Source: an uncultured virus (IMG/VR IMGVR_UViG_3300021389_002231)
Taxonomy: Duplodnaviria; Heunggongvirae; Uroviricota; Caudoviricetes
Reading direction: 5' to 3' (one strand)
Length of the DNA: 20,000 bases
IMG/VR virus record: IMGVR_UViG_3300021389_002231
This document shows, piece after piece, positions 1 through 16,294 of this stretch (positions are counted from its first letter, which is position 1; each line of letters begins with the position of its first letter). The position numbers and the translations under genes are program-made. A model generated the notes under the pieces. The model was given only the letters and a program-made list of their open reading frames with translations. It searched no databases and was not told the DNA's origin.

Positions 1-275
1 GTCTCTTCTCTATTAGTGAATCCAACAGGTTTATTTTTATCTAACTGCATCCACAAGTCTAAGTCGTCGCTTGCATCTTCGTCCCATTCTAAGACAATTA
101 TAAATTCTGCTTTTACTGGAATATCTGCTTTTTTGGCAATGGGATTTATCATTAAAAACGCAATTACAAATAGCATAACAAATCCAATTAACACATTAAA
201 CAATAAATCGTTAAATGCTAAGTTGGATCCGGTGCGTCTTTTTTTACCTGTGAAAAAGTTTTCTTGATCAGGCAT
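1..275 (-). CDS. MotB/ExbD-like single-TM partner protein, truncated by the window edge; not in the ORF track
   Basis: ATG at 275-273 overlaps the end of the upstream MotA-like gene. Manual translation gives MPDQENFFTGKKRRTGSNLAFNDLLFNVLIGFVMLFVIAFLMINPIAKKADIPVKAEFIIVLEWDEDASDDLDLWMQLDKNKPVGFTNREE, open to the edge. It has a basic N-terminus, one TM helix with an Asp (FNDLL) as in MotB/ExbD/TolR, then a W-x5-D-x-DL-type motif. Confidence 0.7.
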   Translation of the reverse strand, partial: MPDQENFFTGKKRRTGSNLAFNDLLFNVLIGFVMLFVIAFLMINPIAKKADIPVKAEFIIVLEWDEDASDDLDLWMQLDKNKPVGFTNREE

Positions 276-708
276 ACTCTTGCTCTTGTATAATTACTTG
301 CACCTTAACAAACAAACTACCAATCAATCCACATAGTGTTGTAAGTAATGCTGTACTCATACCAGCAGCCATGTCAGTAATAACACGCTTCATGCTATCA
401 ACATTTGATGGGTCAATTTCTGCAAAGCTACTTCCTAGCATAAGCATAAATCCAATAACAGTTCCTACCATACCTACTGTCATACAGGCCTCACCTATAA
501 ACCAAGGTGTTTCAAAATCGTTTCTATCTTTAAAGCTTCTATAACCTACGCTGGCTGTCGCAGCAAACCACATGGTTATAATTGCAAAGCTCAATTTAGT
601 TGAATCATTTTCTAACAAAAATGGAATAGCACCATAGTAAACTGCTGTTCCTAAACCAATGATTTGCATAACAACAATCAACCACCAAACTAAAAATCTC
701 TTATTCAT
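268..708 (-). CDS. MotA/TolQ/ExbB proton-channel family membrane protein
   Basis: Four hydrophobic segments; motifs GMVGTVIGF and GMSTALLTTLCGL match the TolQ/ExbB GLxGTVxG and GxxxALxTTxxGL helices. Confidence 0.8.
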   Translation of the reverse strand: MNKRFLVWWLIVVMQIIGLGTAVYYGAIPFLLENDSTKLSFAIITMWFAATASVGYRSFKDRNDFETPWFIGEACMTVGMVGTVIGFMLMLGSSFAEIDPSNVDSMKRVITDMAAGMSTALLTTLCGLIGSLFVKVQVIIQEQEYA

Positions 709-738
709 AACGTTCTCTTTCCTTTTATCAGTGTGTAG

Positions 739-746
739 TATTTATC
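739..746 (-). promoter_or_regulatory. T4-late-like promoter motif GATAAATA
   Basis: GATAAATA lies about 30 nt upstream of the MotA-like ATG, at the edge of the intergenic gap; the same motif class occurs at 12870, 16300 and 19173. Confidence 0.45.
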
Positions 747-996
747 TAAATTTCTTAGATAAACGGAAAAGCATCGCTTGTTCTTCGTTGAACAAAAAAT
801 AAACCTGAACCCAAGTACCAGTGACATAATCAAGGCAAGAGTCAAAGTCTTTATATCTACTGGTTTCAGTAAATATTACTTTTTTAGGTTGATATTCTTT
901 TACTAATTGCTGAACCTCTTCTACAGTTCCTGAGACTTTGTATGATATTTGTTCTCCGTAATAGTCTAAACTTTTATCAATTTGTATCTGTCTCAT
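742..996 (-). CDS. Hypothetical protein
   Basis: 84-aa ORF co-oriented with and overlapping its upstream neighbour; C-terminal FxxEEQAMLFRL resembles small phage proteins. Confidence 0.65.
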   Translation of the reverse strand: MRQIQIDKSLDYYGEQISYKVSGTVEEVQQLVKEYQPKKVIFTETSRYKDFDSCLDYVTGTWVQVYFLFNEEQAMLFRLSKKFR

Positions 997-1921
997 TACA
1001 CAATATATTCGTTAAAAAATCGCTTCTAGTAATCGTTTTCAATCTATCTTTTGTATCAGCTTTAACAAATATATCGTGGAACGATTTGAATAAATCAGCG
1101 TTCGCATAGATCTTTAAGCTGTTACACATGTATTTATAGTATTCTTCACTGGTACTTCTATTGTCAGTTAATTCTGAAATATCAAACATTGTAACACCTT
1201 TTTCTTCTATTTGGTGAGGTATTTTTGGGACTGATAAGAAGTCTTTTGTAAACTTACTTACGCCCTCTTCGATGGTATATTCAAGTCCATGTTCTAATGC
1301 CATATCGACTATTGCAATAGGTTTGTCCTTGATAAAATTAGAACCCCGGTCGGGATTCTGGGGGGATATTTTCTTACCTATTTGGTAGAGAAAATTATTG
1401 TATGTTGAATCTGTTAAATTATAATGAAAGTTTAATCTTAATAAATTACCTTCATTAACAGTCATAACATTATCTGTTTTATAGTTAACATTGTAATCAT
1501 ATATGTATAATTGGTGAGGTTGCTTTGTAAAATATACAAGTTGGTCTGGATTATTAACTGCTATGTTTCCTAAATCAATACTAGATGGTAAACAGTATTT
1601 AAAGTCACTTTCTAGTATTGGCCCGTTTTCTATATCAGTACAAGTACTTAATGCTTTTTTTAGCATTTTTATATAATTGCTATCATTGGGACTAGTATTG
1701 TATCCATGCATTAATAACGGTAGACTAATAACTCGTGTAGAGCCACCAAACTCCATATTAGGATTATTTCTATATAAGAAGCAACGTTGTTGTGATATAC
1801 TGTCTAATTGTTGGGGGAATATACCTGTGTTCTCAGAATAAGTTATCAAGTGTTGCAATATACTTGATTGTCCACATATATTATTGAGATTTACGTTAAG
1901 TAAAAGATTACGGATTTGCAT
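977..1921 (-). CDS. Hypothetical protein
   Basis: 314-aa open frame coupled to the clamp-loader gene; no motif recognised. Confidence 0.75.
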   Translation of the reverse strand: MQIRNLLLNVNLNNICGQSSILQHLITYSENTGIFPQQLDSISQQRCFLYRNNPNMEFGGSTRVISLPLLMHGYNTSPNDSNYIKMLKKALSTCTDIENGPILESDFKYCLPSSIDLGNIAVNNPDQLVYFTKQPHQLYIYDYNVNYKTDNVMTVNEGNLLRLNFHYNLTDSTYNNFLYQIGKKISPQNPDRGSNFIKDKPIAIVDMALEHGLEYTIEEGVSKFTKDFLSVPKIPHQIEEKGVTMFDISELTDNRSTSEEYYKYMCNSLKIYANADLFKSFHDIFVKADTKDRLKTITRSDFLTNILCNETDTN

Positions 1922-2840
1922 TTAGTGTTCTTGCAATTTCTACCATAGTAGCACTTAGATTAATCTCTGGATCTGCTACTTGAGTATGCTTAATCATACC
2001 CTCTCTAATTGCTAGTACACAACTATCATATGTAAAGTCATCATTAGTATACAAGTCTAAGTTTCTGTATAACCAAGTAAAGATTTCATTGTATTCATCT
2101 GCTCTTGCACTACCAACAATTAATTTACGTGCATCTTGTATTTTACCTTGCTTAAATAATTCCACCATTTTAACACGCCACTCAGCAGTACTACCACCTT
2201 CTTCTGGCTTAGTAAGTGTATTGTCAATAACACTCATTTGTACGGTATTAATAGTTTTACGCAAGTCTGGATAGTTAGCACGAACCATTGCATCTAATGT
2301 ATCAATATCAAATTGTACATTGTTGTCTGCACAGATTTCGCCAACTCTTACAGTAAATTCTGTTTGATCTAATTGTTCAATATGAAAACCTTGACATCTA
2401 CTGTGTAATGCAGGAATAATCATGTTAGGATAATTACAAGTTAAAATAAATCTTACGCTTGCATGATACTGTTCCATAACTCCACGTAATGCCGCTTGTC
2501 CTTCAGGACTAATATGATCCGCCTCATCAAGTAAAATAACTTTAAATTCACCCCAAGGCATAGTTTCACTAAATGCACTAATTTTCTTACGAATCATTTC
2601 AACGCCGTTATCTCGACTAGCATTAATATAAAGTACATCAGCGGCTTGTACTTTAAGTTCAGCAATAAGTACCTTTGCAAGAGTAGTTTTTCCAGTACCT
2701 GGGCTACCACTAAAAAGTAAATGAGGTATTCCACCATCATCTATCCAGTTTTGTACTTGTCTGCGTTGTGCTTCATCTCTGAATACATACTCGCCGACTG
2801 TAGTAGGTCTATACTTTTCAACCCATAAGTCTTTAGCCAT
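1908..2840 (-). CDS. Sliding-clamp loader AAA+ subunit (RFC small subunit / T4 gp44-like)
   Basis: LWVEKYRP, Walker A GSPGTGKT, INAS, Walker B LLDEAD, SRC arginine-finger motif, DLRKTIN. Confidence 0.93.
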   Translation of the reverse strand: MAKDLWVEKYRPTTVGEYVFRDEAQRRQVQNWIDDGGIPHLLFSGSPGTGKTTLAKVLIAELKVQAADVLYINASRDNGVEMIRKKISAFSETMPWGEFKVILLDEADHISPEGQAALRGVMEQYHASVRFILTCNYPNMIIPALHSRCQGFHIEQLDQTEFTVRVGEICADNNVQFDIDTLDAMVRANYPDLRKTINTVQMSVIDNTLTKPEEGGSTAEWRVKMVELFKQGKIQDARKLIVGSARADEYNEIFTWLYRNLDLYTNDDFTYDSCVLAIREGMIKHTQVADPEINLSATMVEIARTLNANP

Positions 2841-3024
2841 TTATAACTCCGTTTTCCCAATTTTCAGCACAATCTTCTGCATAGCGTCTGCTTTTGCCAT
2901 ACATAGGTCTTTCTTCTGCTAGTTCATCACCAACATATAGTTTAACTACATAGTGAGTTTCTTCAATAATAACTGCACGTCTGTTTTCTTTTTTAAATTC
3001 TACTGTTTCGCCGTTTTTAACCAT
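2833..3024 (-). CDS. Hypothetical protein
   Basis: 63-aa ORF coupled to both neighbours; C-terminal YAEDCAENW resembles small T4-like phage proteins. Confidence 0.7.
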   Translation of the reverse strand: MVKNGETVEFKKENRRAVIIEETHYVVKLYVGDELAEERPMYGKSRRYAEDCAENWENGVING

Positions 3025-3258: not shown

Positions 3259-4224
3259 TTAAATCTTATGTGTAAACAAACTGCTTACACTTTCTTCATT
3301 TGATACACGCCTAATGGCTTCACCAAACATAGTTGATACACTTACTGCACGAGTCTTTTCGCAATCATGTGGACATTTAAAATCTATACTATCTGTGATT
3401 ACAAGTTCTTCTAATACACTGTTCTCAACCTTATGACATGCTTCGCCAGTTAGTACTCCGTGTGTGATGTATGCTCGTACACTTAATGCACCAGCATCCA
3501 TTATTGCCTGTGCAGCATTACATAAAGTTCCACCACTATCAATAATATCGTCAACTAAAATAGCATGGCAACCTTTGACTTCACCAATTATATTCATTAC
3601 TTCGCTTACACCTGCTTTGGGTCTACGCTTGTCTACGATAGCAATATCTCCGCCAAACATATCAGCAAAGTTTCTAGCTCTAACAGTACCGCCGGCATCT
3701 GGAGATACAAAAACAGTTTCTACATCGTGTACATCTTGTCCTTCTTTGTAGAATTGTTTTTTAATATCTTTTGCAAACACAATACGACTTGTTAAATCAT
3801 CTACAGGAATATCAAAGAAGCCCTGTATCTGTCCTGCGTGTAAATCCATTGTAAGGATTCTATCTGCACCTGCCTCTGTAATTAAGTTTGCTACTAATTT
3901 AGCAGTAATTGGTGTACGACTTGCACTTTTACGATCTTGTCGTGCATAACCAAAATAAGGAATAACTGCTGTAATACGCTTGGCACTGCTACGCTTAGCC
4001 GCATCAATCATAATCATTAATTCCATTAGGTTATCGTTTACTGGTGTACTTGTACTTTGTATAATAAAAACATCTTCACCACGGATATTTTCTAAAAATT
4101 CTACGCTACTTTCACCATCCGCAAACGCTTTTATTTCTGCAGGTACTAGTGTAGCAAAACAATGAGCAGCTATCTTCTCTGCCATCTCAATGTTACTATT
4201 TCCAGCTATAATCTTCATATGCAT
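3259..4224 (-). CDS. prs: Ribose-phosphate pyrophosphokinase (PRPP synthetase); start may be the ATG at 4218
   Basis: [34 protein letters not shown] and [11 protein letters not shown] motifs; full length. Confidence 0.96.
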
Positions 4225-5746: not shown

Positions 5747-6145
5747 TTACTGATCTATATCTTCCATACTACCATCACTGTACTCTACTTCAAAGTATTG
5801 AGTACCGTCATCTCTAGTACGGGCCGTTCTACTTACTTCTGTTATCTTAGGTGCTTGTTTAGTTGCTGCCTTAGATTTTGGTGCAGGAGTATCAACTGGC
5901 TTTTTTGCTTCTGCCGGCTTCTCATCTTCTTTAAGACTAACTTCTTTTGTGTCAGCTCCTGGTACATTATCTTTATAGAATTCTTTCTGTATTTTTTCTC
6001 TAGGAATTTCTACATTTCCTCTATTGTCAATAATGTCGCCTCGAGCATTCATATTTAAATTACTCACTGCTCGTGTTTTTTCATTTTTTGCTGCCAGATT
6101 GCCCATGTCTAATGTACGGCCTCTAGCTGTTTTTACTGTTTTCAT
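5747..6145 (-). CDS. Hypothetical phage protein
   Basis: 132 aa; ordered-looking N-terminus (TARGRTLDM..NARGD) and a K/P/A-rich linker; ATGA overlap with the upstream gene. Confidence 0.75.
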   Translation of the reverse strand: MKTVKTARGRTLDMGNLAAKNEKTRAVSNLNMNARGDIIDNRGNVEIPREKIQKEFYKDNVPGADTKEVSLKEDEKPAEAKKPVDTPAPKSKAATKQAPKITEVSRTARTRDDGTQYFEVEYSDGSMEDIDQ

Positions 6146-6648
6146 TTTAAAAACTCCTTGATATCAAGTTCATATTTTATGCTGTCTATATGATGTATAC
6201 CCAGCAAATATAAACAGTAGCTAGCTACACTACTGCCTCTTCCTACACCTAATACAATATTATTTTGTTCACATGTATGAACTAAGTGTAGTAAAAATTT
6301 AAGCACAATAATCATTCCTCGTTTCTCATACTCAACAAGTTCTGAATATACTCTGTCACGTTGCTGTGCATTAGTACAACGTTCCATTAGCCATTCTTGG
6401 ATATTTATATCCTTGTAACTGTCCGGCATATTCCATTTATTTAAACAATCCTCAACATATGTATCAGTTGTATTTTGTGGCTTTGCATCAATAAATCTAT
6501 CTAAATCAAATGTTTGACACCATTCGTTATATATATTTATGGGTTTTGTATCTTCAACAATTACATCAGTAACATTATTTCCACTTAACCAACCCGTAAC
6601 AATATCTTGTTCAGATACTACATATTGCTTATTTTTATTCATGAACAT
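6142..6648 (-). CDS. Stand-alone fragment of DNA polymerase III alpha (DnaE-like)
   Basis: RVYSELVEY...GVGRGSSVASYCLYLLGIHHIDSIKYEL matches the DnaE GxGRGSxxxSLVxYxLGITxxDPxxxxL motif; only 168 aa. Confidence 0.8.
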   Translation of the reverse strand: MFMNKNKQYVVSEQDIVTGWLSGNNVTDVIVEDTKPINIYNEWCQTFDLDRFIDAKPQNTTDTYVEDCLNKWNMPDSYKDINIQEWLMERCTNAQQRDRVYSELVEYEKRGMIIVLKFLLHLVHTCEQNNIVLGVGRGSSVASYCLYLLGIHHIDSIKYELDIKEFLK

Positions 6649-6683: not shown

Positions 6684-6960
6684 GTATTTCTTTAATTGAT
6701 TTATCTGGTGCTGGCCCAGTAATTTCACCAATATCTAATACAGAACCATCTTCTTTTTCATTTTTTGCATAAGTCTCAGACTGGGCTATTTGTCTCTTAT
6801 GGTCTCTAATTAATTCAATAAACAGATTAATTTGATCTATAAGTCCCTCGCCCATTTGAGCTTTACTGGCTGCTAACACTTTTTTAAGCATTTGCTTTTC
6901 AAACTCCATAGCTTCACCCATGGTTAATTCGCTAAGTGGCTTACCTTCGTAGTCAATCAT
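6661..6960 (-). CDS. Hypothetical protein
   Basis: 99-aa helical-looking ORF; ATGA overlap with the MazG-like gene. Confidence 0.7.
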   Translation of the reverse strand: MIDYEGKPLSELTMGEAMEFEKQMLKKVLAASKAQMGEGLIDQINLFIELIRDHKRQIAQSETYAKNEKEDGSVLDIGEITGPAPDKSIKEILDFYKEK

Positions 6961-7367
6961 AGATCGCCATCTTGCCTATTTTCACTATAATATGCATCAA
7001 ATGATCCACCTGGATAACGTTTTTCCAGTTTGCGTACATTTTCTGCAATTACTTCATTAGGGTCCAAATCCAATGCCCTGCAACTATTAATCCAATACCA
7101 AATAATATCGCCAAGTTCTCGTTTAGCGTGAAACTGAGTTTCATCATCAAGTGGTTTACCTTGGAATATACATTTTTTAACAATTTCTGCAAATTCGCCT
7201 CCTTCTGACGCAATACCAATTGCTCCTGTAAGCAACTGTGCCATATTTACTCCTGACTCTTTGTCAAGTTTATTAAGCATTGTTGCCAATGCTTCAGTGT
7301 TGTTACTTTCATTACTTGTAACTGCACCTACAAATTCTTTGTATTTGTTTAAATCAATATTTTTCAT
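6957..7367 (-). CDS. mazG: MazG-like nucleoside triphosphate pyrophosphohydrolase
   Basis: GIASEGGEFAEIVKK and KRELGDIIWY (ExxE...ExxD) motifs; NVRKLEKRYP. Confidence 0.88.
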   Translation of the reverse strand: MKNIDLNKYKEFVGAVTSNESNNTEALATMLNKLDKESGVNMAQLLTGAIGIASEGGEFAEIVKKCIFQGKPLDDETQFHAKRELGDIIWYWINSCRALDLDPNEVIAENVRKLEKRYPGGSFDAYYSENRQDGDL

Positions 7368-7751
7368 TTACTCTACCTTTGGTAATTCTATTACATTTGC
7401 GTTTGCTTCAACTTTTTCCATGTCAAAGTTTACACTTTCTCCACAACCACAACTGCTTGCTGCTGCTGGGTTTACTACTTCTAACATTGTTCCCATTACA
7501 TCTTGTTTTAACTCAAGTGTTGTACCTACTAAAAACATAATGCTTGAACTGTCAACGGCCATTTTTCTTCCGTTATCCATTATAATAACATGATCTGCTT
7601 TTTTGTCAAGTTCATTTTCTTCTTTTAAATTCCAAACATAACTGAATCCTGCACAACCGCCACCTTTAAGTCCTAAGACAGGAATTTTACCTTCGTTTGC
7701 ATCGCTGATACCAGTTAGATGGTTCATTGCTTTTTCTGTGACTTTAATCAT
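7368..7751 (-). CDS. A-type Fe-S cluster carrier (IscA/SufA/HesB family)
   Basis: IKVTEKA, GGGCAGFSY, NP...SCGCGES with the three conserved Cys. Confidence 0.92.
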   Translation of the reverse strand: MIKVTEKAMNHLTGISDANEGKIPVLGLKGGGCAGFSYVWNLKEENELDKKADHVIIMDNGRKMAVDSSSIMFLVGTTLELKQDVMGTMLEVVNPAAASSCGCGESVNFDMEKVEANANVIELPKVE

Positions 7752-7948
7752 TACTTGCTTCCTATATAACCTGCTATGATTCCTATCAATCCAGTCAGTG
7801 CCATTTTCATTAAAGTAATAACACTTTCGTCTACTGGTCTATTTTCTTGTAATGCAACATAATAGTCGCCTACAATAATAATTCCTAATAGTGAAAGTAC
7901 ACCTACTACTAACGCTACTATAATTAAGTCTTTTAAATTTTTGATCAT
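7751..7948 (-). CDS. Small two-TM membrane protein
   Basis: 65 aa with two hydrophobic helices; overlaps neighbouring start and stop codons. Confidence 0.7.
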   Translation of the reverse strand: MIKNLKDLIIVALVVGVLSLLGIIIVGDYYVALQENRPVDESVITLMKMALTGLIGIIAGYIGSK

Positions 7949-8460
7949 TGTTCTATCTCCAAAGCGGACAAGAGTTCTATCTCTTCTTCATTTAGGTATT
8001 TTAAGTTAACTACTGTTATACCACCTAATACCATTGCACCAGTTTGTTCACATAACTTTTTACTAGCAGTCATGCTACCACCTGTTGCAACTAAATCGTC
8101 TGCTATTACAACTCTACTTGTATGACCCAATATACCTTCTTGCAATGTAAGTGTATCTGTTCCATATTCGAGTTCATAACTTTCTTCTAACAGCTTACCT
8201 GGGTATTTAGCACCTTTTTTGCGAATCATAACAAATGGCACATCTAATTCTTGTGATAATGCTGCTCCTAGTACAAAACCTCTGCTTTCAATACCAACTA
8301 TATGTGTTGGCATAAACTCAGCATGGTCACGTAACTCTTCTGCCATTTCTTCTACTAAACTTGTCCACAAATTACTTGCAAACAAACTGTTTATATCATA
8401 AAAATTTACACCTTCTATAGGGTAATCTGGAACTGTTCTTATGTAATCTTTTATATTCAT
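7945..8460 (-). CDS. apt: Adenine phosphoribosyltransferase
   Basis: IRTVPDYPIEGVNFYDI, GIESRGF, IRKKG, YELEYG, DDLVATGGS. Start placed at 8460 (TAATG overlap) rather than 8472. Confidence 0.92.
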   Translation of the reverse strand: MNIKDYIRTVPDYPIEGVNFYDINSLFASNLWTSLVEEMAEELRDHAEFMPTHIVGIESRGFVLGAALSQELDVPFVMIRKKGAKYPGKLLEESYELEYGTDTLTLQEGILGHTSRVVIADDLVATGGSMTASKKLCEQTGAMVLGGITVVNLKYLNEEEIELLSALEIEQ

Positions 8461-9371
8461 TATATATTCCACTCCTTGTTTATTTTACCTTCACTTGGTC
8501 CATTTGCTTGGAATATGTTAGGAAGTTTTGGTGCAACTGTAGAACCTGTATGCAATACCCAATCCATCCATAACGTATGTGCTGACGGTAGTACTGGTAA
8601 CGTCTGAGTATTGGGCATATAACTAAGTAATAAGCTACTAAGAAATTCAACTGGTGTTGATGTTAATATCGAGGTATTATTAAATTCGTTACCATACCAT
8701 GCAAATAAATGATCATTAACATAAGGAGTAGATCGTCCGGTAAGAATACAATCATCGACAGATAAACAAGACGGATGTTTTGCACTCCCTCCAAAATCTA
8801 CTTCTTTATTGATCCAATTATTTAACATATTTTTAAATCTTTCTTTATTAGTATTGACCCAATCTTCTCCTTCAAATCGTTTAATCATTAAATCCCATCT
8901 TAACTTTATTACTGCAACATAATTACTAGATTCAAAATAAGGTTTTGTAAGTAAAAAAGATTCGTGTGCTGACCATACTTGACCAACTGTTCCTTTTATT
9001 CTTTCCTTAGCAAAATCAATATAACTTACATCTGATTTACCACTAAGTATATCCATATACTCAGGTTTTTCAAACCATTCTTCTTTTGTTTGAAAAAATT
9101 GTTCCCAATATGGAGTATATCCATTTCCATTAACTGTATTATTTAAAATACTATCCCAAATTAATTCTTGGTCAGTGCGTCTACATTCTTTAAAACGTTG
9201 TTTTATTTCACCATGTGGGAATTTGTGATCTGCCCACGTATGTCCAAATAAGTCATAATCATAGTCATCAAATAATTTAAGTATTTCATAAAAATGTTCT
9301 GTGTATAGACGATTGTCATTAAAATGTCTTGTTTGTCCACTAAAACAAATTGCTATTTTATCTTTTGCCAT
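8460..9371 (-). CDS. Putative glycosyltransferase-like phage protein
   Basis: IAICFSGQTR...DLFGHTW...VIKLRWD...NDH resembles the IAxCxSGQxR / HTW / RxD pattern of putative glycosyltransferases in phage islands. Confidence 0.5.
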   Translation of the reverse strand: MAKDKIAICFSGQTRHFNDNRLYTEHFYEILKLFDDYDYDLFGHTWADHKFPHGEIKQRFKECRRTDQELIWDSILNNTVNGNGYTPYWEQFFQTKEEWFEKPEYMDILSGKSDVSYIDFAKERIKGTVGQVWSAHESFLLTKPYFESSNYVAVIKLRWDLMIKRFEGEDWVNTNKERFKNMLNNWINKEVDFGGSAKHPSCLSVDDCILTGRSTPYVNDHLFAWYGNEFNNTSILTSTPVEFLSSLLLSYMPNTQTLPVLPSAHTLWMDWVLHTGSTVAPKLPNIFQANGPSEGKINKEWNI

Positions 9372-9718
9372 TAATCATCTGTAGTATCTATGGGATCATC
9401 AAATCCTGGTCTATCCATAAGCCCCATGCCAGATGGATCGCTCATATAATATGGATCGTTAAACATCGGGTCGTCTTCACTTGTTACACTTTTAATTTCT
9501 GTAATGAAATGCATTAATGTACTTTCAATACCTAATTTAAGTGTTTCTGTACTACTAGCACACCCACTGCAACTTCCACTCATTTGCATGTGAAGTATAC
9601 CAGTTTCTTCATCAAAGTTTAATACGTTTACCTGTCCACCATGTTGTGCTACATTAGGTGCAACGTATTCTTCCATAACTTCATCTATTTGTTTAAGTAT
9701 TTCTTCTTTAGTTCTCAT
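9371..9718 (-). CDS. NifU C-terminal / NfuA-type Fe-S carrier
   Basis: VAPNVAQHGGQV...MSGSCSGCASSTETLKLGIE, the CxxC Nfu signature; acidic tail. Confidence 0.9.
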   Translation of the reverse strand: MRTKEEILKQIDEVMEEYVAPNVAQHGGQVNVLNFDEETGILHMQMSGSCSGCASSTETLKLGIESTLMHFITEIKSVTSEDDPMFNDPYYMSDPSGMGLMDRPGFDDPIDTTDD

Positions 9719-10381: not shown

Positions 10382-10732
10382 TTAATCTCCTTTACCTGGC
10401 TTATAAGATAAATGTTCTCGTTTATCTTTAACTTTTGCCCATTCTTCCGCATCAGGCGGAACATCTTCGGGCCTTGCTAGTGTAATATTTGGCCATTCCT
10501 CAGATCTGTCTGCATTGAACTTGTACCAGAAATCATATTCTTCTCCCTCTAATGCATTATCAGGAACAATAGCATCTACAGGACATTCTGGTTCACATAC
10601 ACCACAGTCAATACATTCATCTGGGTTAATTACTAAAAAGTTTTCACCTTCATAAAAGCAATCTACTGGACACACTTCTACGCAATCCATATGTTTACAT
10701 TTGATACATTCATCCTTAACTAAATATGTCAC
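10382..10732 (-). CDS. fdxA: 7Fe ([3Fe-4S][4Fe-4S]) ferredoxin, FdxA type
   Basis: [14 protein letters not shown] and [12 protein letters not shown] motifs with the WPNIT C-terminal extension; GTG start. Confidence 0.92.
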
Positions 10733-10733
10733 C

Positions 10734-11033
10734 TTATACTCCTAAAATTAATTTTGCTTCTTCACTCATCTTATCTGGACCAAAAGGCGGATCAAATGTG
10801 ATTTGAACATCACAAGTTTTTATGCCATTTACCATACATGCATCGTGAACGTCTTGTTTGATTTGGTCTGCCATTGGGCAAAACGCACTTGTTAACGTCA
10901 TTACAATAACAACGTGTGAACTTACTATATTTATTTCATAAATTAAACCTAAGTCATATACGTTAATACTGATTTCTGGGTCATATACCTTACGTAAATT
11001 ATCAATAATTGCTTGTCTAATTTCTTTAGTCAT
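10734..11033 (-). CDS. SufT / DUF59 Fe-S assembly protein
   Basis: [20 protein letters not shown]...MTLTSAFCP...FDPP...MSEEAK. Confidence 0.9.
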
Positions 11034-11034
11034 A

Positions 11035-12393
11035 TTAGTAAGACATTTTTTCCTCTACTGCAAACCATACAAAACTGTCTGTATTGTTCACAATATTAAA
11101 CAGTGTTCTTACTCCAAATCCTGCGGCACCTTTTGGTGTTGTTGCTGAACCTTTTTTAGCCCAACACATACCAGCAATATCTAAATGTGCCCATGCAGTT
11201 TTTTTGTCTACAAACTTGTATAAGAACTCAGCGGCAGTAGTTGACCCACCATATGGGCCTCCAATGTTTTGCATATCTGCAATATCACTGTCAATCATCT
11301 TAGCCCAGTTTTTACCCATTGGCATACGATAAAAACCTTCACCTGCTAATTCACCGTTTTCAATAATTGCTTTTTCTAATGTATCACTGTTAGTAAATAG
11401 TCCTGCCATTTCGTTGCCTAGTGTTGCAACAATGGCTCCTGTTAGTGTAGCAAGGTCAATAATGGCACCTGGTTTATATTCGTCTTGTACAAATGTTAAG
11501 ATATCTGCAAGTACTAATCTACCTTCTGCATCAGTGTTTAAATTTTCTACAGTTTGTCCACTTAATGATGTAACAACATCACCTGGCTTAATTGCAGTTC
11601 CATCCGGCATATTCTCTACTAAACCTACAATACCTATTACGTTCTTTTTTAATTTTTTACTAGCAATAGCATGCATGGCTCCAACAACTGCGGCACTACC
11701 GCCCATGTCATATTTCATATCGCCCATGTTACGTCCTGGTTTAAGACTGATACCACCTGTGTCGAATGTAACACCTTTGCCTACTAGTGCAATTGGTTGT
11801 ATGTCAAGGCCATTTGTCCATTCCATTACAACAACATAACTATCTTTTTCACTACCTTGTCCTACACTTAACAATAAGTTAAGACCCATTTCTTTTAGTT
11901 GTGCTTCGTGATAAATTTTTACGTTAACACCCAATGGTGATAGTTGTTCGTTAATACGATTGGCATATTCTGATGGATATAAAACGTTTCCTGGCTCACT
12001 GATCAAATCACGTGCAAAATTTACACTGGTTGATATACCTGCCGGGTCTGCATCAAATTCTACTTGTGTTGGATCTGTTTTATATTTGTCAAAACTGTAA
12101 CTTGCAAGTGCCATTCCTTCATTAATACTGTCCATGTATTTTGTACTAATATCAAATATAATTTCGTTTGCTAGTTTCTTATATTTACTGTACATGTTGC
12201 CACCAAGTTCACGTGCTTCTTTTTCACTCTTTGGTGCTGATTTAATTACGGTAATATATTCATAATCTTTGTGTGCAAATCTCAAATCAACAGATTTGTC
12301 TTTCATCTCTTCGACTGCTTTTTTAATATTGCCGCCTATTTTAGTTGCTTGCTTACTGCCTGCAATCACTATAATCGCTTTAGTTAGAGCCAT
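11035..12393 (-). CDS. pepA: M17 leucyl aminopeptidase
   Basis: LVGKGVTFDTGGISLK, MKYDMGG, NTDAEGRL, DLATLTGA, HLDIAG; AAGGAG RBS. Confidence 0.93.
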   Translation of the reverse strand: MALTKAIIVIAGSKQATKIGGNIKKAVEEMKDKSVDLRFAHKDYEYITVIKSAPKSEKEARELGGNMYSKYKKLANEIIFDISTKYMDSINEGMALASYSFDKYKTDPTQVEFDADPAGISTSVNFARDLISEPGNVLYPSEYANRINEQLSPLGVNVKIYHEAQLKEMGLNLLLSVGQGSEKDSYVVVMEWTNGLDIQPIALVGKGVTFDTGGISLKPGRNMGDMKYDMGGSAAVVGAMHAIASKKLKKNVIGIVGLVENMPDGTAIKPGDVVTSLSGQTVENLNTDAEGRLVLADILTFVQDEYKPGAIIDLATLTGAIVATLGNEMAGLFTNSDTLEKAIIENGELAGEGFYRMPMGKNWAKMIDSDIADMQNIGGPYGGSTTAAEFLYKFVDKKTAWAHLDIAGMCWAKKGSATTPKGAAGFGVRTLFNIVNNTDSFVWFAVEEKMSY

Positions 12394-12826: not shown

Positions 12827-12869
12827 AATATTTCTCCTTAAGGTTGTATAATATGTTACTATACTACAT

Positions 12870-12877
12870 TATTTATG
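12870..12877 (-). promoter_or_regulatory. T4-late-like promoter motif CATAAATA
   Basis: Intergenic, about 43 nt upstream of the ATG at 12826. Confidence 0.5.
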
Positions 12878-12923
12878 ACTTTGATTACAATACATTATAT
12901 AGGTGTTTTATTAAAAACATAGA

Positions 12924-12951
12924 TTGACAAATGGATAAATACGTATATAAT
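12924..12951 (+). promoter_or_regulatory. sigma70-type promoter with an embedded GATAAATA motif
   Basis: TTGACA (12924-12929), 16-nt spacer, TATAAT (12946-12951); GATAAATA at 12934-12941; GGAG RBS before the ATG at 12976. Confidence 0.7.
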
Positions 12952-12975
12952 TAATGAACAATCGGAGAAATATTA

Positions 12976-13272
12976 ATGGGAAAATGGTTTAATTGGCAGC
13001 ATCTTAAGTCTGCAGAATATTATAGTGGTGATGTATCAACGCATAAAAATGTAATAAAAGTATACTTCAAACATATGTATGTTGGATTTAGAGAAGCAGG
13101 AAAACAATTGTTTATGGCAATTGCTAGTGTAATACACGCAATATTTCCACCGTTATTTGACTTTAAATTATTAGAAGTAGTAATTAATCAAACTATTGGT
13201 TTACACAAATTCCTACCAAATCATCCAATGTGGAAAAAATTAAAAGATGAACTTAACAAAGATAATAAATGA
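12976..13272 (+). CDS. DUF6356-like small protein
   Basis: H-L...YFKHM...ASVIHAIFPPLF resembles the DUF6356 YxxH..HAxxPxLF pattern. Confidence 0.55.
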   Translation: MGKWFNWQHLKSAEYYSGDVSTHKNVIKVYFKHMYVGFREAGKQLFMAIASVIHAIFPPLFDFKLLEVVINQTIGLHKFLPNHPMWKKLKDELNKDNK

Positions 13273-13930
13273 TGGTTGCACTATTAACACTAGTGGAACT
13301 ACAGGTACACCTAAGGCTGTATATCAAAGTCCAGATAAGATAAGATATGCTAATCAAGCCGCAGTTAGATGTCAAAATATTGACTCTAATAGTCGAATAT
13401 ACACAGTATGTACATTAGACCATGCTGGTGGGCTATTTGCTCAGACATTACCAGCAGTAAGTGTAGATGCACATGTTGATATTGAGCAGTTTAATCCTTA
13501 TGTATGGGTTAGAAAAGTACAAGAAGAAGTTACTCACACTCACTTAACACCAAATATGGCTAGAGCTATAATGGCTACTAAGACATTCCAAAATGGATTT
13601 GATCTTACAGGATTAACGGTCATGTGTGGAAGTGATAGAGTACATAGCAGTATCATTGAAGCCTTTATAGAAAAAGGTGCTACATTTATTGCTAATTGGG
13701 GCATGAGTGAATGTGGTCCGGTAGCAATTAATAAAACATTTAATAAAGGTGATTTAGTAGACAAATACCATGAAAGTATTATGGGAGATACTGTATACTG
13801 TGATACAAAAATCATTAACAATGAGTTACATGTTAAAGGTAATATATGTGTTAATGACGATTGGTTTGCCACAGGTGATTTAGTAGAGTATAAAGATGGA
13901 ATCTATTGGTTCCTAGGAAGAAAATTATGA
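13247..13930 (+). CDS. Minimal AMP-binding (ANL superfamily) adenylation enzyme
   Basis: TSGTTGTPK P-loop, WGMSE, WFATGDL, terminal FLGR; only 227 aa. Confidence 0.85.
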   Translation: MNLTKIINDGCTINTSGTTGTPKAVYQSPDKIRYANQAAVRCQNIDSNSRIYTVCTLDHAGGLFAQTLPAVSVDAHVDIEQFNPYVWVRKVQEEVTHTHLTPNMARAIMATKTFQNGFDLTGLTVMCGSDRVHSSIIEAFIEKGATFIANWGMSECGPVAINKTFNKGDLVDKYHESIMGDTVYCDTKIINNELHVKGNICVNDDWFATGDLVEYKDGIYWFLGRKL

Positions 13931-14694: not shown

Positions 14695-15774
14695 CTATTT
14701 TATCATATTATCTCTGAGCAACCCCCAACTATGCTTACTCATCAATCCTTGGTTACCGTTTTGAGAATAAAACTCAACATCTCTTAGTGCTTGTTCGTGA
14801 TGCTCATCTCTGTAATACTTCCAATATTCACCTTCTGCTGAATTAAGTCCATATAAAGCTCTAACCCAAGTATAAATCCCTTCAAACGTTTTATTCATTA
14901 AACGATTAAACACTTTTGGTTTTTCACGTAACTTAATAAGTTGTTTTACACTTGCTTGTGCTACAAAGTTGGCTGTAGCATTTAATGGCTCAATAAATCC
15001 AGCACTGATACCAACTGCAACAACATTATCAATCCACTGTTCTACTGGCCTACGTGATTTAAATTTAATTACATTCTCTGCTTCAATGCCTGTTTTTGCA
15101 GTAAATTCTTTTTTAGCATCTTCTATACTTTGATACTCACTAGCAAAAACATAACCATAACTCATTCTACTTTGTAAACTAATGCTCCACATCCAGCCTG
15201 CTGACATTGTTTGTGATTCTGTATAAGGTTTGTATATTGGCGGACCGTTGGCTATGATTGCATGATCATTAATTAACAATTTACTATCAATATGTTTAAT
15301 ACCAACATGTGTACTTAATATTCCATTCTCGCCTGTTGCATCAATAAAAAATTCTTCTTTGTTATAATCGTCTAGTGTAAAATTTCTAGGAACAATTTTA
15401 AAATTAGGTTTTGATTCGCACCATTCTTGTAAAATACTACAGAATCCTGGAGCATCAATATGGTAACTAAATGTCTGCCTTTGCTTTGTTATTAAGTTAT
15501 CTTCTTCATTGCCTGGATAATAAAACCATGTAGTTTGATTCCATCCTGTAAAAATATTTCCATATTTAAGATAACCATTAGCACGTTCAACTAACTCCTG
15601 GTCGCTTATTCCTATTATTTCACTTATTTCATTAATAACAGGAATAGTACTTTCGCCTATTCTTCTTACAATAATATTTGGATCACTATACATTGTTACA
15701 TTTTCACCAGCATTAACTAGATATATTGCTGATATCCAACCAGCAACTCCATTGCCAACAATATTAATTGGCAT
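14695..15774 (-). CDS. Tryptophan-halogenase-like flavoprotein; start at 15774 or 15792
   Basis: IVGNGVAGW (GxGxxG), IGESTIP, LKYG, YHIDA, FFIDATG, GWMWSI (WxWxI), AGFIEPL. Confidence 0.85.
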   Translation of the reverse strand: MPINIVGNGVAGWISAIYLVNAGENVTMYSDPNIIVRRIGESTIPVINEISEIIGISDQELVERANGYLKYGNIFTGWNQTTWFYYPGNEEDNLITKQRQTFSYHIDAPGFCSILQEWCESKPNFKIVPRNFTLDDYNKEEFFIDATGENGILSTHVGIKHIDSKLLINDHAIIANGPPIYKPYTESQTMSAGWMWSISLQSRMSYGYVFASEYQSIEDAKKEFTAKTGIEAENVIKFKSRRPVEQWIDNVVAVGISAGFIEPLNATANFVAQASVKQLIKLREKPKVFNRLMNKTFEGIYTWVRALYGLNSAEGEYWKYYRDEHHEQALRDVEFYSQNGNQGLMSKHSWGLLRDNMIK

Positions 15775-15775
15775 G

Positions 15776-16294
15776 TTAGTTTCGAACTTCATAATATCTT
15801 TCCTTATTTACTTTCCATATGACTTGAGGTACATAAAATACTTCTTCTTCATTAACATATGAAAAAACTCCTTGCTTTTCTAAAACAATTGCACTTCGAT
15901 GAATACGACTCATTTTTCCACTTCTGTCTTTATCATCATATGGACTAGTAGTAATATAAATGTTAGGACTTTTTGCCCATTCAATTTGCAATAGTAAATG
16001 ATCATTAAATGCCCAATTTTGTTTTTGGTATTTACTTAATCCATCACCAGGTTTTAACTCAATTTGAGCTCCTCTGAACAACGCACGATATCCATCTTTA
16101 AACGGATGAATACCACTAAGTGCTACCAATCTATTGTTGTTATATGAGCCCCACCAACTACCACCAGTCTCCATACACCATTCAAATTTTAGTGCTTTTA
16201 GACTGTTGTTGTTAGTGTAATTTCTGTTGTCACATTCTTGCATGAATGTTTCAAGCTCAGGTGAATTAGTTAGAATCTGCCTACTGTTTACCAT
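15776..16294 (-). CDS. Putative GNAT-fold protein
   Basis: WGSYNNNRLVALSGIHP..YRALFRG strand pattern and size (172 aa) suggest an acyltransferase fold; tentative. Confidence 0.4.
   Translation of the reverse strand: MVNSRQILTNSPELETFMQECDNRNYTNNNSLKALKFEWCMETGGSWWGSYNNNRLVALSGIHPFKDGYRALFRGAQIELKPGDGLSKYQKQNWAFNDHLLLQIEWAKSPNIYITTSPYDDKDRSGKMSRIHRSAIVLEKQGVFSYVNEEEVFYVPQVIWKVNKERYYEVRN

Follow-up and report, generated by a model that had tools for sequence, protein, structure and literature searches.

The 5:2 motors of the MotA/ExbB type power flagella, nutrient import, envelope integrity, gliding and anti-phage defence, and each newly recognised family of such motors has exposed a new use of membrane energy. 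A stretch of 20,000 nucleotides (nt) from an uncultured virus of the Caudoviricetes (IMG/VR record IMGVR_UViG_3300021389_002231; the whole stretch is called the window below) raises the question of whether a phage can carry a motor of this kind and, if so, what kind of motor it would be. Two overlapping genes at the left end of the window, called A and B here, had been described in a first-pass annotation, made from the letters of the window, as a stator-like ion-channel pair. The proposal put forward here, to which a probability of roughly 0.6 is given, is that A and B are the first two genes of a conserved trio, A-B-C, in a large marine phage, and that this trio encodes a new family of MotA/ExbB-type ion-driven motor with a periplasmic output.

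The putative channel subunit and its aspartate-bearing partner

The product of gene A had been read as a MotA/TolQ/ExbB-type protein of 146 amino acids (aa), and the Pfam family MotA_ExbB (PF01618) bears this reading out, matching residues 70-133 with 30.4 bits (curated cut-off 22.9) and an E value of 3.7e-07. The same threshold is passed by the copies of A from SAR116 and Geminicoccaceae bacteria and by that of the cultured phage RHph_N3_19 (27.3 bits); the A protein of phage P10VF, at 20.1 bits, falls under it. A Kyte-Doolittle hydropathy scan of A gives strong segments at residues 5-28, 71-98 and 116-140 and a weaker one at 38-56, and the protein has no sizeable cytoplasmic domain. Among 41 homologues, the invariant residues are G79, G82, T83, G86, T119, T123, T124 and G127, all of them in the two helices matched by Pfam, and the invariant threonines are presumably equivalent to the pore-lining threonines of ExbB/TolQ (T148 and T181 in ExbB). 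Relatives of A number 181 in a 90%-clustered protein collection, and the Geminicoccaceae form is longer, at 253 aa. A sequence search of the PDB with the A profile gave no significant match, and the best PADLOC matches, all of them weak (at most 24 bits, E 3.6e-06 to 1e-05), are to ZorA models. Judged by its sequence, A is a member of the MotA/ExbB/TolQ superfamily that belongs to none of its named orthologue groups.

Gene B is cut by the left edge of the window, and the rest of it was recovered by way of related IMG/VR contigs, from which the full-length protein is put at about 213 aa (213 and 224 aa in the relatives L001 and L003). In most other loci, A and B overlap or are separated by a gap of a few bases, and the overlap found in the window (Table 1) is the arrangement expected for translational coupling. 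The residues of B encoded in the window include GSNLAFNDLLFNVLIGF and then VLEWDEDASDDLDLW; they run from a basic stretch, GKKRR, through a hydrophobic helix with AFNDLLFN, to EWDEDASDDLDLW at the start of a beta-sandwich that resembles TerD. The hydropathy scan of this part finds one strong segment (residues 25-43), and an AlphaFold2 model of B, built from 28 sequences with a predicted local distance difference test (pLDDT) score of 83.1, has one transmembrane (TM) helix at 18-44 followed by an all-beta sandwich at 57-197. B has the architecture of a single-TM protein with its N terminus inside, an Asp near the cytoplasmic end of the helix and a beta-sandwich in the periplasm. Longer homologues (257-317 aa) owe their extra length to low-complexity tails and have no added domain.

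One TM helix carrying an Asp had been claimed for B in the first-pass annotation, and both parts of the claim stood: the scan finds one hydrophobic segment, and the Asp (D24) is present in 380 of 387 distinct B proteins and is never substituted, the remaining seven being N-terminally truncated or misaligned. It is kept even in the distant copies from Rhizobium phages. Across 75 diverse members, down to 27% identity, the invariant residues are D24, W65, D72, D74, L97, D100, G103 and E123, and W65, D72, D74, D100 and E123 are each found in 386-387 of the 387 distinct proteins. By its architecture, B would act as a subunit of the ExbD/TolR/MotB type, without detectable homology to these proteins and with a different periplasmic fold.

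The periplasmic part of B models as a beta-sandwich, and TerD is the fold to which it is best likened. When residues from about 56 to 206 were compared with the PDB by VIA-align, the best matches were the TerD structures 2qz7_B (Z 9.8, root-mean-square deviation 4.0, 131 residues aligned) and 2kxt (Z 8.9), both well clear of the row that follows (6.3), and Foldseek with the B model likewise returned the TerD family and SAV2460 (E 4e-04 to 2e-02). Neither the fold of ExbD/TolR nor an OmpA-like peptidoglycan-binding domain was found. At the level of sequence, PDB searches with B and with the B profile gave nothing significant, the profile had no TerD match at E≤10, and no family passed for B in Pfam, PHROGs, NCBIfam or PADLOC; the ExbD and MotB families are absent among the matches listed (25 of 55 families) for the 75 B members. 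The domain had first been called atypical and YfaP/DUF2135-like. Atypical it is, but the second half of the description did not last: DUF2135 (PF09906, cut-off 22 bits) has no match at E≤1 in the two closest full-length B proteins and stays below threshold (E≤1) in 7 of the 75 members, with a best E value of 0.0021, and the YfaP cluster named for B by a protein atlas, at 0.82, serves as a lead only.

Because the acidic cluster of the head (D72, D74, D100, D101, D107 and E123) is invariant, it may bind a metal ion, probably calcium, in the manner of TerD and its calcium-binding motif.

A three-gene unit in phages and bacteria

A and B had been taken for a gene pair, and their linkage is firm: B is directly preceded by A in 81 of 83 viral loci and in 79 of 80 bacterial ones, a near-universal adjacency whose three exceptions have B at the start of a contig. 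The idea of a pair had to be given up, as a third gene, C, which falls to the left of the window, is found 3' of B in 161 of 163 loci by iterated profile search, and the two loci without it end at or just past B. The unit is a conserved trio, A-B-C, and not a pair. C usually overlaps B, and the phage and SAR116 forms of C are homologous (BLASTP E 5e-07 for one pair). In three viral loci (L016, L017 and L019) a single gene of 360-418 aa is inserted between B and C.

The model of C (pLDDT 77.7) consists of a TM hairpin (residues 2-24 and 28-53), a small beta-beta-beta-alpha-beta domain and a partly confident tail that is rich in Lys and Pro. In the majority of homologues, the loop that joins the helices of the hairpin is basic, so the soluble part of C is placed, provisionally, in the periplasm. 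Only G54 is invariant among 41 C sequences, in which no His is conserved, and searches of Pfam, PHROGs, NCBIfam and PADLOC gave no family for the protein. When A, B and C (residues 1-175) were folded together at 1:1:1, the interaction prediction scores from aligned errors (ipSAE) were 0.01 and 0.01 against a mark of 0.32, in a run without controls that speaks neither for nor against binding.

The trio is widespread. B has 646 relatives in the 90%-clustered collection, and at E≤0.001 its profile picks up 1983 sequences, each standing for one cluster at 50% identity, of which 1339 pass at E≤1e-10. In IMG/VR a relative of B is encoded in 304 of 560 pattern-matched stretches, and in bacteria (contigs from one genome per species) in 108 of 282. 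Among cultured phages B occurs only in those of Rhizobium and Sinorhizobium, in 29 records, some of which are GenBank/RefSeq duplicates; the full trio, with each of its genes labelled hypothetical, is present in RHph_N3_19 (genes 065-067), P10VF (genes 191-193) and the temperate phage 16-3 (genes p038, p040 and p042). In 16-3 (locus L166, 2298-4159) the trio is interrupted, with p039 (96 aa) between A (p038) and B (p040) and p041 (61 aa) between B and C (p042), and a gene for a trypsin-like periplasmic protease (p036) lies just 5' of it.

The bacterial carriers are mostly SAR116, metagenome-assembled genomes labelled 'MarineAlpha6' or Pelagibacteraceae, and Geminicoccaceae, together with a few gammaproteobacterial metagenome-assembled genomes. 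On a complete SAR116 chromosome (L144) the trio is flanked by TctCBA, a cupin, a luciferase-like oxidoreductase, an alcohol dehydrogenase and anthranilate synthase, and on a 3.5-Mb Geminicoccaceae contig (L162) by LysR, fasciclin and trehalose genes; both settings are chromosomal and not prophage-like. In a quick unrooted tree of 79 B proteins (left after the removal of sequences shorter than 170 aa and the merging of cores that were identical or shared at least 90% identity, a reduction from 165 to 113 and then to 79), viral and bacterial rows interleave; the tree points to no donor and gives no direction of transfer. The clade that holds the B of the window comprises 26 rows, all viral, with a support of 95 in the Shimodaira-Hasegawa-like approximate likelihood ratio test (SH-aLRT). 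The first-pass annotation had supposed that the phage builds a motor of its own. The record is indeed that of a phage, but the trio is not phage-specific, since SAR116, Geminicoccaceae and further proteobacteria have chromosomal copies, and on present knowledge it is no phage invention.

Each of the 13 genomes sampled around a trio-carrying SAR116 genome (13/13) has one canonical ExbD/TolR, and the trio in that SAR116 genome would thus be an extra motor besides Tol. This bears on the idea that the phage proteins are a decoy or poison, with A or B mixing into the TolQR, ExbBD or MotAB complexes of the host and disabling or hijacking them, a role already suggested in the first-pass annotation. 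A, as a minimal channel subunit, could play such a part. However, A, B and C always stand together in phages, bacteria keep the trio as a stand-alone set beside their own TolR, and the catalytic-type residues are strictly conserved, as expected of a working channel, all of which makes a decoy highly improbable.

The same distribution also bears on a possible role in superinfection exclusion or in another conflict at the envelope, whether defence or counter-defence, as Zorya plays for bacteria. The ZorA models that head the PADLOC matches of A, the presence of the trio in a temperate phage (16-3) and the interleaving of viral and bacterial copies, which is often seen for mobile conflict genes, would all suit such a device. 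On the other hand, A lacks the ZorA-type tail, B and C have no PADLOC match, effectors, whether like ZorC/ZorD or of another kind, are missing among the neighbouring genes, the trio of bacteria does not sit in defence islands, and promoter motifs of the late type suit exclusion genes poorly. A conflict device is therefore considered very unlikely.

Expression, neighbouring genes and possible roles

A motif upstream of A had been noticed early, and it is there, as GATAAATA (Table 1), which we take to resemble the -10 element of T4-type late promoters, TATAAATA. Of 63 distinct regions upstream of A in related phages, 34 contain it at a distance of 80 nt or less, compared with 53 of 549 other genes in the same loci and 44 of 294 when an upstream gap of at least 25 nt is required. 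Because the T4-late-type ATAAATA usually precedes the trio in phages, we infer late expression, with action on the host envelope or on membrane energetics in late infection. Elsewhere in the window, the divergent intergenic region at 12827-12975 has ATAAATA on both strands (12870-12876 minus and 12935-12941 plus), each 35-44 nt 5' of a gene start, and this pair is consistent with a promoter element in this phage.

A late timing would also invite the explanation that the trio is a gated ion leak, whose opening late in infection would lower the membrane potential and help to trigger holins or tune lysis. Stator channels that have lost their plug leak protons and stop growth, as the literature on the MotB plug describes, and a leak of this kind through the trio would fit with the late-promoter-like motif in 34 of the 63 regions and with the endolysin-type Peptidase_M15_3 genes that adjoin it in 4 of 38 loci. 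Yet the trio also sits in non-prophage chromosomal loci of streamlined bacteria, the cell-wall hydrolase gene of the window lies about 17 kb away from it, and the conserved periplasmic heads of B and C exceed the needs of a simple leak. Lysis timing is accordingly regarded as quite unlikely.

The Peptidase_M15_3 genes come from a survey of gene neighbourhoods in related phages, a step already proposed in the first-pass annotation, which covered two genes on each side of the trio in 38 representative viral loci and gives functional leads only. SbmA/BacA-family importers were found in six loci, Peptidase_M15_3 in four, and ClpP, ClpS and fatty-acid desaturases in three each. The SbmA/BacA genes are spread over several B clades (L009 5264-6235, L014 5221-6192, L026 3185-4156, L062 5460-6428, L065 2499-3515 and L068 2537-3553), and one related contig (G016) has an SbmA/BacA gene about 150 kb from its own trio. 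The Peptidase_M15_3 genes are those at L035 5995-6459, L047 2685-3155, L051 3063-3527 and L058 2705-3175. Genes for full-length Hsp70/DnaK, Hsp20, ClpS and ribosomal protein S21 were also seen near the trio (L062 920-2812, L069 155-2035, L073 2938-3381, L071 6254-6466 and L079 3813-4025).

The importers raise the possibility of a Ton-like energiser of uptake across the outer membrane, in which C would be the analogue of TonB, maybe working with a phage or host SbmA/BacA importer, for peptides or for nutrients such as iron for the Fe-S and radical-SAM enzymes of the phage. The gene order is like that of exbB-exbD-tonB, SbmA/BacA genes are found no more than two genes away from the trio in 6 of the 38 viral loci and once more elsewhere on a related contig, Fe-S assembly genes are abundant in the window, and in a virome survey exbB/exbD, as annotated automatically, count among the auxiliary iron genes of viruses (PMC13065750). 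Nevertheless, C has no Pfam TonB C-terminal domain, two TM helices and no conserved His, B shows no significant likeness to the ExbD family in sequence and differs from it in fold, no gene for an outer-membrane receptor is linked to the trio in the loci examined, and SbmA adjacency is missing from 32 of the 38 loci and from the window. Uptake is thus an unlikely role for the trio.

In the preferred reading, that of a new motor family with periplasmic output, A would be a stripped-down channel subunit of the MotA/ExbB/TolQ type and B would replace MotB/ExbD/TolR, its TM helix supplying the ion-binding Asp, with C in the place that TonB and TolA hold in the exbB-exbD-tonB and tolQ-tolR-tolA operons. 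A ring of A would probably assemble around a dimer of B, as in known 5:2 motors, and protons or another cation would pass by way of Asp24 of B and the invariant threonines of A, driving movement. As the trio has no real cytoplasmic domain, this movement would act on the periplasmic side, where the heads of B and C would pass it on.

Several observations weigh against this reading and should be set beside it. The second hydrophobic segment of A is weak, so that three or four TM helices are both possible; A reaches no NCBIfam equivalog or subfamily cut-off for MotA, PomA, TolQ, ExbB or ZorA (best 13-17 bits against 85-500), and its profile touches solved MotA chains in the PDB at E values of 0.5-0.8 only. 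Pfam TerD is absent among the matches listed (25 of 55 families) for the 75 B members, and an hhalign comparison of these 75 proteins with 9 SAR116 TolR sequences gave a probability of 1.8% and an E value of 0.028 over 42 columns, with Asp aligned on Asp. Both the A-B complex and the binding of metal by the head of B are inferred only. The fold searches with C were uninformative, as whole-model queries returned generic helical hairpins (best Z 7.7, residues 1-54) and no Foldseek match at E≤0.001, and the 41 C sequences lack a conserved His of the TonB/TolA type. As for timing, ATAAATA is not enriched in the window (10 found against 15.4 expected), and when three related but incomplete contigs were queried with the putative sigma factor of P10VF, no late sigma factor was found. 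Among metatranscriptomes, three libraries (X8 and X16 from one study, X17 from another) have contigs that cover A and the start of B, with X17 leaving 700-756 uncovered and X19 covering neither gene, but such contigs fall short of proving transcription, its starts or its levels, and DNA may be present in these libraries.

A fuller version of the proposal, held tentatively and at somewhat less than even odds, joins these elements into an undescribed class of ion-driven 5:2-type motor, in which the axle subunit bears a calcium-binding TerD-like head and a dedicated 2-TM partner uses the flow of ions for work in the periplasm, be it mechanical or gating. Such a motor would have been acquired by hundreds of marine jumbo phages and Rhizobium phages and expressed late to re-energise or remodel the host envelope, and it would be the first virus-encoded motor of this kind. 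The literature search, which had supplements outside its scope, returned no description of the trio or of a phage-encoded motor of this kind, and likewise none was met in those portions of PMC12204202, PMC7029224, PMC12505986, PMC5852040 and PMC13065750 that the search covered. The novelty at the level of the family would lie in a B subunit with a new fold and in a new third partner, in a group that is large and spread over many phages. If a phage does bring its own ion-driven envelope machine, this would be a new kind of host takeover, and the role of the trio is directly testable, as tractable pairs exist for P10VF, RHph_N3_19 and the temperate Sinorhizobium phage 16-3.

The clamp-loader gene of the window (Table 1) is a phage hallmark, which places the trio in a phage genome, and the window has further phage markers in a prohead or Clp-type protease, MazG, a phosphoribosyl pyrophosphate (PRPP) synthetase and a cell-wall hydrolase, along with many host-like auxiliary genes. 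Among cultured phages, the clamp loader is closest to those of jumbo phages, with 51% identity to the PA5oct type and 42% to the Atu_ph07 type. The same gene order is found in three IMG/VR contigs of 79-184 kb, in which A is 85-93% identical, and related contigs of 99-205 kb have completeness ratings of 28-56%; together, length and rating suggest a genome of about 350 kb. Near-identical DNA was found, among the matches listed, in 20 seawater or marine runs from 12 studies, 3 samples of which are possibly the source of the window itself. A megablast search with positions 1-3000 and a tblastn search with A gave no match to cultured phages. Bacterial contamination of a phage contig was considered and ruled out, as phage genes surround the trio both on several IMG/VR contigs of considerable length and in cultured phages whose genomes are complete.

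Table 1. Features at and near the left end of the window, in window coordinates.
Feature	Position	Strand	Basis
Gene B, first 91 codons, the rest cut off by the left window edge (ATG 275-273)	1..275	minus	Reading frame and relatives
Overlap of A stop and B start, 8 nt, ATGCCTGA	268..275	minus	Same 8-nt overlap in L001-L003
Gene A, 146 aa, minimal MotA/ExbB/TolQ-family membrane protein	268..708	minus	Pfam and hydropathy
GATAAATA, promoter-like motif, 31 nt 5' of the A ATG	739..746	minus	Recurs 5' of A in relatives
84-aa gene, role unassigned, context only	742..996	minus	Syntenic with the trio in closest relatives; family search without match
Clamp-loader large subunit (gp44-like)	1908..2840	minus	Pfam AAA and Gp44_lid; phrog_168, E 1.1e-77

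Other genes of the window are of interest in their own right. A group of iron-sulfur genes on the minus strand (7368-7751, 9371-9718, 10382-10732 and 10734-11033) has matches to IscA-like Fe-S_biosyn, a NifU-like domain, a 4Fe-4S ferredoxin and FeS_assembly_P, and genes for nucleotide precursors on the same strand (3259-4224, 7945-8472 and 6957-7367) encode the PRPP synthetase, a protein with a phosphoribosyltransferase domain and a MazG-like pyrophosphatase. The gene at 11035-12393 (minus) encodes a 452-aa protein of the M17 leucyl-aminopeptidase family (Pfam E 1.3e-116; no PHROG match at E≤1e-4), an unusual cargo for a phage. The only plus-strand island of the window holds a gene for a protein of the tryptophan-halogenase family (14695-15792, minus) and a 227-aa open reading frame (13247-13930, plus), the size of a fragment of an AMP-binding enzyme, which matches the C-terminal half of the profile. 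A 168-aa open reading frame at 6142-6648 (minus), which matches phrog_11127 'DNA polymerase' and, over profile positions 18-94 of 260 only, DNA polymerase III alpha, may be a split or fragmentary polymerase gene. Finally, a GC-rich inverted repeat at 1340-1363, terminator-like on both strands, lies inside a 314-aa open reading frame (977-1921, minus).

Comparison with known systems

Judged by the family to which A belongs, by how B is built and how strictly its residues are conserved, and by the gene order, which is strictly kept in phages and bacteria, the trio most resembles ExbB-ExbD-TonB and TolQ-TolR-TolA, the proton-driven 5:2 motors. Like these, it consists of three consecutive, often overlapping genes, of which the first encodes a member of the MotA/ExbB/TolQ family, the second an N-in single-TM protein with an Asp, and the third a protein anchored in the inner membrane with a periplasmic part, the output side being the periplasm. 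The differences lie in every subunit. The A protein, of only 146 aa, has no real cytoplasmic domain, unlike ExbB and TolQ; B has a TerD-like beta-sandwich for its head, where ExbD and TolR do not, and its homology to TolR is undetectable; and C, a 2-TM hairpin without a conserved His and without the C-terminal domain of TonB or TolA, shares with them the gene position after B only, and is no TonB or TolA. Moreover, no gene for Pal, TolB or a TonB-dependent receptor is linked to the trio.

With the MotA-MotB and PomA-PomB stators, the trio has the TM Asp of B in common, and A may share the four-helix topology of MotA, Pfam matching the last two helices. MotA chains are also the only solved ones that the A profile touches, with the poor E values given above. 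However, A is without the torque-generating cytoplasmic domain of MotA and PomA, B has neither the plug nor the OmpA-like peptidoglycan-binding domain of MotB and PomB, and there are no flagellar genes nearby. Zorya, with ZorA-ZorB, is likewise a non-flagellar member of the superfamily to which A belongs, and A has weak matches to ZorA, but the long tail of ZorA is missing from it, neither B nor C matches a Zorya protein, and no ZorC, ZorD or ZorE partner is found in the neighbourhood.

For the head of B, the TerD family (PDB 2qz7, 2kxt and 3ibz) provides the best structural match, and both are rich in conserved Asp. TerD proteins are soluble and cytoplasmic; the matches to solved TerD-family proteins span the whole chain and include no membrane anchor, whereas the domain of B is membrane-anchored and predicted to be periplasmic.

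The nearest parallel for such an exchange of heads comes from predicted non-canonical TolQ-like motors with vWA-headed partners (PMC12204202; Mol Biol Evol 2025). They too combine a MotA/TolQ-like gene with a TM-anchored periplasmic head of another fold, and the passages of that article covered by a term search mention neither phage copies nor TerD. The trio differs from them in that its head is TerD-like and not vWA, and in that a third, 2-TM partner is always present. Taken together, these likenesses and differences make it most apt to class the trio with the 5:2 motors, as a variant that is new at the level of the family.

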